Assembly (NCBI RefSeq): GCF_003790525.1
Contig: NZ_CP033636.1
Reading direction: 5' to 3' (one strand)
DNA from: Escherichia coli
GTDB lineage: Bacteria > Pseudomonadota > Gammaproteobacteria > Enterobacterales > Enterobacteriaceae
DNA length: 64,000 bases
Under the pieces are notes generated by a model. That model was not told the DNA's origin and ran no database searches. It saw nothing but the letters and a program-made list of their open reading frames with translations. Below, one piece after another: positions 2,407 through 42,411 of the stretch. Made by a program: the position numbers and the translations under genes. Position 1 is the stretch's first letter. Every line of letters starts with the position of its first letter.

Positions 2407-3291
2407 ATGTCATTACGCACGCCCGATTTATTGTTCACAGCGATAGCACCTGCCATTTGGGGCAGCACCTACATTGTCACCACCCAATACCTGCCGAACT
2501 TCTCACCGATGACGGTCGCGATGCTGCGGGCGTTGCCGGCGGGTTTATTGCTCGTGATGATCGTCCGACAGATTCCAACGGGAATCTGGTGGATGCGCAT
2601 CTTCATCCTCGGCGCACTTAATATTTCGCTATTCTGGAGCTTGTTGTTTATTTCGGTCTACCGCCTGCCGGGCGGGGTCGCGGCGACGGTAGGCGCTGTG
2701 CAGCCGCTGATGGTCGTGTTCATCTCTGCCGCTCTGCTAGGTAGCCCGATACGATTGATGGCGGTCCTGGGGGCTATTTGCGGAACTGCGGGCGTGGCGC
2801 TGTTGGTGTTGACACCAAACGCAGCGCTAGATCCTGTCGGCGTCGCAGCGGGCCTGGCGGGGGCGGTTTCCATGGCGTTCGGAACCGTGCTGACCCGCAA
2901 GTGGCAACCTCCCGTGCCTCTGCTCACCTTTACCGCCTGGCAACTGGCGGCCGGAGGACTTCTGCTCGTTCCAGTAGCTTTAGTGTTTGATCCGCCAATC
3001 CCGATGCCTACAGGAACCAATGTTCTCGGCCTGGCGTGGCTCGGCCTGATCGGAGCGGGTTTAACCTACTTCCTTTGGTTCCGGGGGATCTCGCGACTCG
3101 AACCTACAGTTGTTTCCTTACTGGGCTTTCTCAGCCCGGGGACCGCCGTGTTGCTAGGATGGTTGTTCTTGGATCAGACGCTGAGTGCGCTTCAAATCAT
3201 CGGCGTCCTGCTCGTGATCGGGAGTATCTGGCTGGGCCAACGTTCCAACCGCACTCCTAGGGCGCGTATAGCTTGCCGGAAGTCGCCTTGA
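2407..3291 (+). CDS. pecM: EamA/DMT-family transporter (PecM-like), typical of the Tn1721 tet(A) module
   Basis: 294-aa polytopic membrane protein with EamA-like repeats, in the expected position next to tetA(A). Confidence 0.8.
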   Translation: MSLRTPDLLFTAIAPAIWGSTYIVTTQYLPNFSPMTVAMLRALPAGLLLVMIVRQIPTGIWWMRIFILGALNISLFWSLLFISVYRLPGGVAATVGAVQPLMVVFISAALLGSPIRLMAVLGAICGTAGVALLVLTPNAALDPVGVAAGLAGAVSMAFGTVLTRKWQPPVPLLTFTAWQLAAGGLLLVPVALVFDPPIPMPTGTNVLGLAWLGLIGAGLTYFLWFRGISRLEPTVVSLLGFLSPGTAVLLGWLFLDQTLSALQIIGVLLVIGSIWLGQRSNRTPRARIACRKSP

Positions 3292-35647: not shown

Positions 35648-35779
35648 TTAACGTCTTAAAGACAACTGAACCTTCTCGGCCCTTTCTGCGCCCCGACTAA
35701 TGATACTATCGTAGTTGTCGATTTCATCATCAGTTGGTGATTCTTCAGCTATCCATTTCAGGTACTTGATGCGGTCCAT
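35648..35779 (-). CDS. small ORF (43 aa) with strong Shine-Dalgarno, not in the supplied ORF track
   Basis: Translated by hand from the minus strand: MDRIKYLKWIAEESPTDDEIDNYDSIISRGAERAEKVQLSLRR; GGGAGGAG lies just upstream of the ATG. Confidence 0.25.
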   Translation of the reverse strand: MDRIKYLKWIAEESPTDDEIDNYDSIISRGAERAEKVQLSLRR

Positions 35780-35869: not shown

Positions 35870-37111
35870 TTACAGGATGCCTAACCTTTTTGTTTCATCG
35901 ATCCACGGTCTGAATTCTTCCAGTAAATTATCATATAACTTTTCATCGCTGATCGAACCGAAATCATCCATGGCAAAGAAGTGGGTGTTATCAACCCGGC
36001 GGTCAGTAAAGTCATCCAGATTTTTGAGGATACCGTAGCTTGAACCACCCAGGCCGACAAACTTCCAGAAGATGGGGTAGTTGGCAGAACGCCGGATTGC
36101 ATCTTTAATCGCCCGGGTCTTGCTGATCCCGCCATCGGTAATAAATACAACATATACCGGGATTTTCGAGTCCTTAAAGTAGTCGACAATTTCTTCCATC
36201 ACAGGGGGCTCATTGTTTGTCCCACCAAGTCCCGGCAGGTTCTCCCAGGCTGAACGCTTTCCAGACCCGCGAATGGACTGAATATATGTGTCCAGGTTGT
36301 CCAGTGTGACGTTTGGATACTTCTTGTGCTTCTCTCCAAATCCCCAGACATCCATTTCACCGTCGTCGTCGAACTGGGCGGCAAGAACGGCGATGCGGTC
36401 CAGCACAGACTGAACGTTGCCCTTACTGAACTGGCCACTCATTGAGCCGGATGCGTCAAGTACAAATGCAACCGCTGCCTCAAGGGTGTCCAGTTTATTT
36501 TTAGTGAGACTGACCGAGGCTTTTTTAGCGAGGCTTACGAGGCGCGGAGATCTGGTTTCAAGTTTCTTTTCCAGACTGATACGAGCAGGCTTTGCTGGCT
36601 GCGGAGCTGGCTGTGCGACATCAACGCCAAAGCTAATGGCCAGAGGCTCAAGACCACCGTTGAAACCCTGCCCGAGCGCACGAAGCTTCCAGGCGCCATT
36701 GTGCCGATATACTTCACCCAGGATGATTGCTTTCTCACTGCGGCCCTGAGTCTCAGCCTGAAAATCAGCGATACCAGGAGCCTGAATGCTCAATAAACTG
36801 AGCCCACTGATAGTATCTTCACCATCAATGACAACGGTGATCGCAATCTTACTGACGTTCGCCGGAACACGATCCAGTGCTATCTCAATGCTGGACTGCT
36901 GAGAACCGGTAACGAGCTTTACTGCCCCTTCAGGAGAAGACAGATTATTATAAAAGATAAAGTCAGAATCGCCGGTTACCTTTCCCTGAGCATTAAGCAG
37001 GAAGAGGCAGGTATCGGGTTCGCCTTTAAAGCCGGATTTGGCAGGGTACTGAAGATTCAGCCTGATCGCAGATTGCTGAAGCGGTATGTTTTGTCCGGAT
37101 TGTAGATTCAC
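35870..37111 (-). CDS. terF: TerF-like protein (N-terminal TerD-type domain plus C-terminal vWA domain)
   Basis: 413-aa translation; N-terminal half resembles TerA/TerD family, C-terminal half has a vWA MIDAS motif (DASGSMSG). Confidence 0.65.
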
Positions 37112-37497
37112 ATTAACTCTCCTGATTTTTGATTATTTTTAAAGCGCAGCGCTTATATATGTTCCCCAGGCTTAGTTCAGGACGCTGGATTTCTGGTGAG
37201 GCGTATATATGGTGTGACACCATATTTCATCACGCTGAAGTTTCTATACCTGTTGAACTGGAATTTTGATTGACCGGGTATCTTATGTTCCAGATCCCGT
37301 TCCTTCATAAACCGCAAAAGTAACATATATCAGAGGGGCATTCTGTTGATAAAAGGCACGGAATACCGGCTTTAACCAGCAACCAGAGATAAATCCGTTT
37401 CCTGCCTTTAAAAGGCTCAGGTCTGAATTAACATGACCTGCTTTCTGAAATTTCCAGTCCCCTTTCTACTACTCCCTCCTGAAAGCGGATCGCAACC

Positions 37498-37522
37498 AAA
37501 AAAAACCCCGGCATTGCCGGGG
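37498..37522 (-). terminator. intrinsic terminator immediately downstream of terE
   Basis: On the minus strand: CCCCGGCAATGCCGGGG hairpin followed by eight T; begins 18 bp after the terE stop. Confidence 0.75.
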
Positions 37523-37539
37523 TATGATTCAGCGTTGTT

Positions 37540-38115
37540 TTAGATGTTAACGCCGTGCTGGGAGGCAAGAGCCGCCAGGCCACCGGCAAAGCCCTGACCG
37601 ACAGCTTTAAACTTCCACTCAGCGCCATGACGATACAGTTCACCGAAGACCATAGCGGTTTCGGTTGAGGCATCTTCAGACAGATCGAAACGGGCAATTT
37701 CCGTGCCGTTGTCGTTGTTGTAAACGCGTATGAAGCTGTTGCTCACCATGCCGAAGTTTTGTTTACGCGCTTCTGCATCATAGATGGTAACGGCAAACAC
37801 CAGTTTTTTGATATCTGCTGAGACTTTGGTCAGATCGATTTTGACCTGCTCATCGTCACCGTCGCCTTCACCGGTACGGTTGTCGCCCTGGTGCTCTACC
37901 GCGCCATCAGGGCTGGTTTTGTTATTGAAGAAAATGAAATGCGCATCTGACAGCACTTTACCGTCTTCGCCTACTGCGAACACGGAAGCGTCCAGGTCAA
38001 AAGCCTGACCGTCAGTTACACGGGCATCCCAGCCGAGGCCAACCATAGCGATATTCATGGTTGGTGCTTCTTTGGTCAGAGATACGTTGCCGCCTTTTAC
38101 GAGAGAAACTGCCAT
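37540..38115 (-). CDS. terE: tellurium resistance protein TerE (TerD family)
   Basis: 191-aa translation from [19 protein letters not shown]...; the ORF track extends 68 codons further upstream. Confidence 0.85.
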
Positions 38116-42089: not shown

Positions 42090-42411
42090 GTTTTATTCCT
42101 TAAAATGGTAATGACCGAGACAATCAAAGGTATATTTAGTAACTGACGAAGAAAATCATATCATGATGAAGTTCTCTGACAAGGGAAATTTTGGTAGTTT
42201 TCTTCAAAAACACAAAAATAAATCCTTTTCATGGTGTTCATTTTTCTATTTTTAATTTAAATATCAATACGTTATAAGGTACTAAAAAAACACTGACGCA
42301 CTCCATAACCACTGAAGTTATTAATCATATTATGATTGACATGTAGCGTAGACACTCATAGACTCACTTCTCAATCATAAATTTGCATGGCGTTCCGGAT
42401 AATTAAAAAAA
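42090..42411. promoter_or_regulatory. AT-rich divergent promoter region between terZ and the ter-linked operon
   Basis: 322-bp AT-rich intergenic region between divergently oriented gene sets; promoters not mapped. Confidence 0.5.

Follow-up and report, generated by a model that had tools for sequence, protein, structure and literature searches.

The window, the whole 64-kb stretch of DNA analyzed here, carries on its minus strand the genes terZ, terA, terB, terC, terD, terE, and terF (Table 1). The gene coordinates are those of the RefSeq annotation of an identical plasmid, pEC6622-1, mapped onto the minus strand of the window, and many IncHI2 plasmids of E. coli, Salmonella, and Klebsiella share the region from terD to terF at 100% identity. 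The terE product matches the TerD family of Pfam (E = 5.6e-86), and the open reading frame list contains a longer frame that shares the terE stop at 37540. TerF is composed of two domains, a TerD domain (residues 1–161) and a vWA-TerF-like domain (residues 212–412), and is named "vWA domain-containing protein" in RefSeq. The Pfam matches confirm the identities of terE and of terF, as a fusion of TerD and vWA domains, that had been assigned beforehand from the sequence. The locus tag Z1178 was considered for terF and rejected, as it denotes a different protein.

The start codon of terF is a GTG at 37111, and the Shine-Dalgarno sequence ahead of it, AGGAG, is invariant in every lineage aligned. 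The RefSeq records of identical IncHI2 plasmids annotate no feature in the gap between terE and terF. Upstream of the cluster, the likely terZABCDE promoter is the top promoter-like site on the minus strand in both promoter scans. On the distal side, a 43-codon "hypothetical protein" (35648–35779, minus strand) is annotated 90 nucleotides 3′ of terF on the IncHI2 plasmid; a 151-codon open reading frame is observed at this position in IncHI2A, and the 43-codon frame of IncHI2 may be a truncated gene. Approximately 3 kb past terF, the minus strand carries a helix-turn-helix (HTH) gene (98 aa) and a HipA-family toxin gene (441 aa) at 31360–32986, which the RefSeq annotation of the identical plasmid describes as a type II toxin-antitoxin pair.

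Table 1. Features of the ter region, in positions of the window
Feature	Position	Strand	Description	Source
Likely terZABCDE promoter	42155–42182	−	TTGTCA-16-TATGAT, extended −10 TG, ~65 nt 5′ of terZ
terZ	42089–41508	−		RefSeq annotation, mapped
terA	41508–40351	−		RefSeq annotation, mapped
terB	40328–39873	−		RefSeq annotation, mapped
terC	39850–38810	−		RefSeq annotation, mapped
terD	38761–38183	−		RefSeq annotation, mapped
terE	37540–38115	−	191 aa, TerD domain; last gene ahead of the terminator	RefSeq, Pfam
Predicted terminator hairpin	37505–37523	−	ACCCCGGC-AAT-GCCGGGGT; 8 pairs (7 G-C), 3-nt loop	Sequence, pattern scan, folding, inverted-repeat finder
T8 tract (U-tract of terminator)	37498–37505	−		Sequence
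Spacer, terminator to terF	37112–37497	−	386 nt, 42% GC, no credible gene
Fast-diverging 5′ part of spacer	37380–37497	−	20–30% mismatches plus indels	Window versus O104
Best σ70-like match in spacer	37280–37308	−	ATGAAG-17-TAAGAT	7.9 bits, rank 33 in 12 kb
Perfect 19-bp palindrome	37207–37225		ATATGGTGT-C-ACACCATAT (= ATATGGTGTCACACCATAT), 96 nt 5′ of terF	Inverted-repeat search
Small open reading frame	37113–37223	−	36 codons, TAA 1 nt before terF GTG	ORF list
Shine-Dalgarno sequence of terF	37119–37123	−	AGGAG, 7 nt 5′ of GTG	Sequence
terF	35870–37111	−	413 aa, TerD and vWA-TerF-like domains	ORF list, Pfam, RefSeq

Predicted Terminator Downstream of terE

On the minus strand, terE ends in ATC TAA, with the stop codon at 37542–37540, and is separated by 16 nucleotides, AACAACGCTGAATCAT, from a hairpin that reads A-CCCCGGC-AAT-GCCGGGG-T (37523–37505) and presents an AAU loop in RNA. 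The T8 tract is contiguous with the stem, its first T pairing with the stem A. The original prediction, made from the sequence, had placed a hairpin with a T8 tract at 37498–37522, 18 bp from the stop codon; the site stands, and each figure is off by 1–2 nucleotides, the element spanning 37523–37498 at a distance of 16 nucleotides. The hairpin energy is −15.3 kcal/mol, and the 56-nucleotide context of the hairpin folds with −19.9 kcal/mol (z = −3.2).

Two pattern scans of differing stringency place this element in context. In a loose scan of 12 kb, the terE hairpin ranks first among 14 terminator-like matches, the loose pattern itself not being enriched (14 observed versus 12.8 in shuffles). 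A strict scan of 64 kb on both strands, for a mismatch-free stem of 7 bp or more that includes six or more G-C pairs and is followed by 7 or more T in 8, retrieves two sites in the window and none in 30 shuffles, which, together with the sequence and the folding, bears out the presence of a hairpin and T8 tract after terE. The other site retrieved by the strict scan, GGCACGG-TTT-CCGTGCC followed by T8 at 63714–63730 on the minus strand, is the only equal of the terE terminator in the window. No second strong terminator is found by pattern scan within terZ–terE. The terE element thus displays the features of an intrinsic terminator: a G-C-rich stem with a short loop, an adjoining U-tract, a sense orientation 3′ of a stop codon, and conservation with compensatory change. 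The 3′ end of terZABCDE transcripts is predicted to lie in the T8 tract or just past it.

The terE–terF Junction in Other Bacteria

For comparison, terF loci were gathered from one genome per species and a terE-like gene was then located upstream of each, which gave 37 junctions with terE ahead of a co-directional terF. In 33 of the 37, a hairpin with an energy of −10.6 kcal/mol or lower, accompanied by a T-rich tail, begins 7–27 nucleotides after the terE stop; the hosts include Klebsiella, Enterobacter, Pantoea, Erwinia, Yersinia, Rahnella, Xenorhabdus, Shewanella, and others. The stems vary by lineage, with arms CCCCGG/CCGGGG, GCCCCG/CGGGGC, GCCCGG/CCGGGC, GAGCCTCTTC/GAAGGGGCTT, and GGGCAAAC/GTTTGCCC. 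An alignment of 27 distinct sequences yields a consensus fold of seven pairs, four of which show double compensatory changes. The structure and the T-tail are conserved and the sequence is not, as expected if the terminator is functional, and the conservation across junctions marks the predicted terminator as an old feature of the terE–terF junction that is maintained by selection. The junction of Superficieibacter contains the hairpin with a tail of only T4. In two Serratia junctions (L029 and L048), a REP-like element, CTCCCTCTCCC..GGGAGAGGGTTGGGGTGAGGGG, replaces the terminator and is not followed by a T-tract.

The sequence behind the terminator is far more variable. Gaps of 724–765 nucleotides in Lelliottia/Citrobacter, Escherichia sp. 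ESNIH1, Rahnella, and Shewanella contain an extra co-directional gene, likewise present in the terE–terF slot of Enterobacter mori, which is predicted to encode a membrane protein of 216–227 aa and starts 12–20 nucleotides past the T-tail (L007 2335–2982; L014 2325–2981; L025 2318–2968; L042 2327–2974; L104 1619–2278). The protein has the N terminus MAKKK and the C terminus ...REKGVNFYIHGDFGSR..FSNKQKRDEC..RDYGY. It matches no Pfam or NCBIfam family, its 65 homologue clusters are all annotated "hypothetical," and it may represent an unnamed member of the ter cluster. Remnants of the gene are detected with a profile HMM in Lonsdalea (24 bits) and in a Klebsiella metagenome-assembled genome (10 bits), and in Klebsiella sp. 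BIGb0407 only its start, MAKRKDG, is recognizable by eye (L037 2848–2967, and the gaps L013 2554–2766 and L010 2791–3000). The extra gene has apparently been lost repeatedly.

terF itself is separable from the genes that precede it. It is found without terE within 3 kb upstream in ~14 genomes, mostly of Xenorhabdus and also of Chimaeribacter, Silvania, Budvicia, and Frischella (for Xenorhabdus and Chimaeribacter, on the same strand, L023 3001–4254 and also L021, L022, L026, L030–L032, L034, L035, L046, and L052), and in Xenorhabdus beddingii it stands alone between opposite-strand genes. Within E. coli, O104:H4 has a full 413-codon terF (L003 3491–4732), and in O157:H7 strain 2-6-2 the gene comprises only 128 codons that encode the TerD domain alone (L002 3483–3869) and is followed by a transposase fragment and iha. 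Insertion sequences interrupt or replace the terE–terF region in other E. coli. Strain 2014C-3599 has an IS3-family element where the distal spacer and terF would be (L005 3331–4544), and plasmid pEC261_1 has an IS1 within its spacer (L087 1774–2470). The terminator hairpin itself is interrupted by an IS4-family element in E. coli strain 48 (L103 1590–1680). The terE–terF junction is a target of insertion sequences, here of IS1 and of the IS3 and IS4 families. terF is thus a separable module, and the slot that follows the terminator has been plastic in evolution.

The Spacer Upstream of terF

A noncoding gap of ~385 bp had been predicted, and this holds closely: the spacer measures 386 nucleotides (37497–37112) and contains no credible gene. 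Its GC content of 42% compares with 50–52% in the flanking genes. The spacer occurs only in IncHI2 (100% identity to the window), in IncHI2A (about 92–93%), in the chromosomal tellurite islands of E. coli O157/O104 (about 86%), and in one metagenome lineage, and no similarity to the spacers of other terE–terF junctions is detected. It diverges by 9–13%, as against 10–22% at the four-fold degenerate sites of terD, terE, and terF; between the window and O104, the spacer differs at ~13% of sites overall, and the four-fold degenerate sites differ at 10% in terD, 22% in terE, and 12% in terF. As this divergence is approximately the synonymous rate of the flanking genes, the spacer drifts at a roughly neutral rate. 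The changes are unevenly placed, with ~9% mismatches in the 3′ ~270 nucleotides versus 20–30% mismatches plus indels in the first ~120 nucleotides. A poly-G tract just 3′ of the terminator varies in length among O104:H4, O157:H7, and another E. coli (L003 ~3135–3150 compared with L002 and L005) and may be a slippage-prone homopolymer.

No Rfam family matches the spacer above threshold, its RNA fold is unremarkable (z = −1.4), and an inspection of its composition for Rho utilization finds a G-rich 5′ half and an excess of C over G that is only modest and near terF. The spacer also contains the 19-bp palindrome, which is unique in the window, is intact in IncHI2A and in the metagenome lineage (L093), and carries two changes in O104/O157; it may bind a protein or may be no more than a hairpin. 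The palindrome was rejected as a repeated operator on the grounds that it is unique in the window and that matches to a looser motif fall only within coding sequence, and it bears no resemblance to the inverted repeats upstream of terZ.

The 36-codon open reading frame that abuts terF has 7 of its 12 substitutions at codon position 3 (a manual tally of the alignments, with an estimated p of ~0.07), contains a 1-nucleotide deletion in IncHI2A that shifts the frame and shortens it, and is cut by a premature stop in the metagenome contig L102. A translationally coupled leader peptide was rejected in view of the frameshift, the stop variant, and the non-significant codon-position bias, and the frame is probably not a gene. 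Most likely, the spacer as a whole is a lineage-specific, largely neutral stretch and not a dedicated regulatory region.

Transcription of terF

The comparative data bear directly on how terF is transcribed. In the 23 short junctions (gaps of 59–137 nucleotides), the T-tail is separated from the terF start by 22–97 nucleotides; Klebsiella pK2044-type plasmids, for example, have an annotated gap of 87 nucleotides with 47 nucleotides from tail to ATG. A σ70 position-weight scan of these 23 junctions, from the last 60 nucleotides of terE through to terF, yields no promoter signal, the median best score being 4.0 bits versus 5.8 bits in coding controls of equal length. The short distances between tail and terF, combined with the absence of a promoter signal there, make read-through the simplest candidate for the ancestral route to terF.

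The explanation that we favor, and hold to be fairly probable, is that the terminator closes terZABCDE and residual read-through feeds terF. The hairpin and T8 tract (37523–37498) would act as a functional Rho-independent terminator at which most transcripts from the terZ promoter (~42182–42155) stop, to give a terZABCDE mRNA of ~4.65 kb. That the terminator ends most of these transcripts, and in this way defines the terZABCDE mRNA, is in our judgment very probable from its anatomy and conservation. The terminator would set the terZABCDE core apart from a loosely attached module consisting of terF, preceded in some lineages by the membrane-protein gene. Most likely, terF would be reached only by the few polymerases that pass the terminator, and the level of TerF would be far below the levels of TerZ through TerE. 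In this plasmid, read-through as the main supply of terF is only slightly favored by the sequence; for relatives with a short gap the estimate is higher. We infer termination in vivo, its efficiency, and the read-through into terF from sequence.

The original prediction had terZABCDE terminate here and terF form a separate transcription unit, given the terminator and the long gap, or be expressed by regulated read-through. Its first part is well founded, as judged from the terminator features and from covarying conservation across the Enterobacterales. The step from a long gap to a separate terF unit is not supported by the sequence: no σ70-like promoter stands out, the spacer is lineage-specific and changes at about the synonymous rate, and in most relatives 22–97 nucleotides, again devoid of a promoter-like signal, separate the T-tail from terF or from an extra gene ahead of it. 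Read-through fits the comparative data better, and nothing points to its being regulated. The only Rfam match over the hairpin is anti-hemB at 24.8 bits, below the gathering score of 49.5, and neither an antiterminator nor an untranslated leader for attenuation is found; as terE is translated on the 5′ side of the hairpin, an antiterminator would have to lie within that gene.

Published work describes the cluster as terZABCDEF, a single ter operon (PMC8115787, PMC12054061). No mention of a terminator after terE was found in the accessible literature, a scope outside of which lie the original sequence and RT-PCR papers. terF is reported to be dispensable for tellurite resistance (PMC8123226), as is also indicated by transposon work in the form cited in PMC12054061. 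In arrays of O157:H7 Sakai, terZ, terD, and terE drop on entry into stationary phase, and terA and terF are unchanged (PMC2241611); an earlier RT-PCR study, as cited there, described terD, terE, and terZ as constitutive and terB, terC, and terF as tellurite-dependent. In K. pneumoniae, tellurite induces terZBCDE, with terF not listed, manganese induces terBCDE, and zinc induces all genes (PMC12054061). These reports fit a discontinuity between terE and terF weakly. Because terA, in the middle of the operon, does not follow terZ, terD, and terE, the expression data are inconsistent within the core operon itself and constitute weak evidence. Were terF transcribed solely by read-through, terE and terF should be induced by the same factor.

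The main alternative is that terF is served by a promoter within the spacer that is weak or active only under certain conditions, which is possible and on present evidence the less probable course. In its full form, in which termination is complete and terF is a separate unit driven from the spacer, perhaps under control through the palindrome, it is unlikely. The scan that bears on it is a σ70 position-weight scan only, with weights set from general consensus frequencies, which weak, activator-dependent, or alternative-sigma promoters would escape. The candidate ATGAAG and TAAGAT hexamers are kept in O104 and IncHI2A, with the −10 hexamer becoming TAAAAT in IncHI2A, but their score of 7.9 bits, the best in the spacer, is below the median best score per 400-nucleotide tile (8.2 bits) and far below that of the terZ promoter (13.4 bits); a second promoter scan finds none on the minus strand within the spacer. 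The palindrome would rarely arise by chance (~385 × 4^−9 for a single loop size); three of four lineages retain it, but it is degraded in the O104/O157 lineage. Likewise, the 3′ 250 nucleotides of the spacer are better conserved than its 5′ part, and, with the palindrome, could mark a real regulatory site, but the spacer as a whole drifts at about the synonymous rate, tolerates an IS1, and is missing from most terE–terF junctions. The strength of the terminator and the length of the gap do argue for a separate unit, and the same is true of the monocistronic terF of Xenorhabdus beddingii and of the expression of terF reported to be unlike that of terZ, terD, and terE (PMC2241611, PMC12054061). 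Furthermore, an untranslated leader of 386 nucleotides would expose read-through RNA to decay or Rho, such that read-through alone may yield very little TerF in this lineage.

It is doubtful that the spacer is the decayed remnant of the 216–227-aa membrane-protein gene, that is, a pseudogene scar devoid of regulatory meaning. The gene is intact in this slot in Lelliottia/Citrobacter, whose TerF is ~91–92% identical to that of the window, and in ESNIH1, Enterobacter mori, Rahnella, and Shewanella, it has left clear remnants in Lonsdalea and the Klebsiella metagenome-assembled genome, and, by eye, GGGTG..ATATGGGAAAGGGG of O104 resembles the ribosome-binding and start region of the gene, GGGTGTCAGGTATGGCAAAGAGG. 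All searches for a remnant in the spacer are nevertheless negative: there is no DNA similarity (local alignment z ≤ 2.2 versus shuffles, and no blastn match), no tblastn match is better than E = 0.2 in a tiny database, and a profile HMM of 58 sequences scores at most 0 bits in all translated frames, as compared with 10–24 bits for true remnants.

Less probable again is a reading in which the conserved 3′ half of the spacer (~37112–37379) is a control region of terF, the palindrome being the operator for a regulator that acts on a weak promoter and the module having been inserted behind an ancestral terminator; if so, terF would be an independently switched TerD-vWA gene in the IncHI2 and O157-O104 lineage. 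Lastly, that the hairpin is a 3′ stabilizer, a processing barrier, or a regulated attenuator, with terE and terF largely co-transcribed, agrees with the single-operon view of terZABCDEF (PMC8115787, PMC12054061), with the two Serratia junctions whose REP-like hairpin has no T-tract, and with the zinc response of all ter genes including terF in K. pneumoniae, but is improbable. A perfect T8 directly on a G-C-rich stem, with a tail that 33 of 37 junctions conserve, points to termination and not to a mere stabilizer; no Rfam family and no alternative antiterminator are detected; and terE is translated on the 5′ side of the hairpin, so that a leader for attenuation is lacking.

If the terminator closes terZABCDE and read-through feeds terF, the name terZABCDEF is a common simplification of a terZABCDE unit, closed by a conserved terminator, and a loose terF module. 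Polar effects of ter mutations on terF should then be small, and terF levels in qRT-PCR need not track those of terZ through terE. The terminator also accords with a terF that, in many strains, is dispensable, truncated, or displaced. It would be an ordinary intrinsic terminator, in a resistance locus well known from EHEC islands and from IncHI2 plasmids that are common in the clinic, and no long-standing question is opened by it.

Comparison with Known Systems

Similar to the canonical intrinsic terminators that close E. coli operons, the terE element has a G-C-rich stem of 7–8 bp, a short loop, and a U8 tract ~16 nucleotides past the stop codon, and its structure is conserved among orthologues and its sequence is not. 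It differs from canonical operon-end terminators in that a co-directional gene, terF, traditionally placed in the same operon, follows it, and in that the 3′ end is here predicted from sequence. Partial terminators within operons are known to set unequal expression, as in the rplL-rpoB attenuator and the terminator before dnaG in rpsU-dnaG-rpoD. As in these cases, the terE terminator lies between co-directional genes, terF has no recognizable promoter in most relatives, and the downstream gene is expected to be needed in smaller amounts. Unlike these attenuators, the terE terminator is followed in this lineage by 386 untranslated nucleotides, which is unusual for elements of this type, and the read-through is a predicted one.

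A further counterpart is the terZABCDEF cluster of IncHI2 plasmid R478/pMER610, the window being 100% identical to many IncHI2 plasmids from terD to terF. The tellurite-adherence island of E. coli O157:H7 and its O104 equivalent contain the same terminator and an 86%-identical spacer. The accessible literature on the R478/pMER610 and O157:H7 clusters describes one terZABCDEF operon, whereas the arrangement read from the DNA here would be a terZABCDE unit followed by a terF module.
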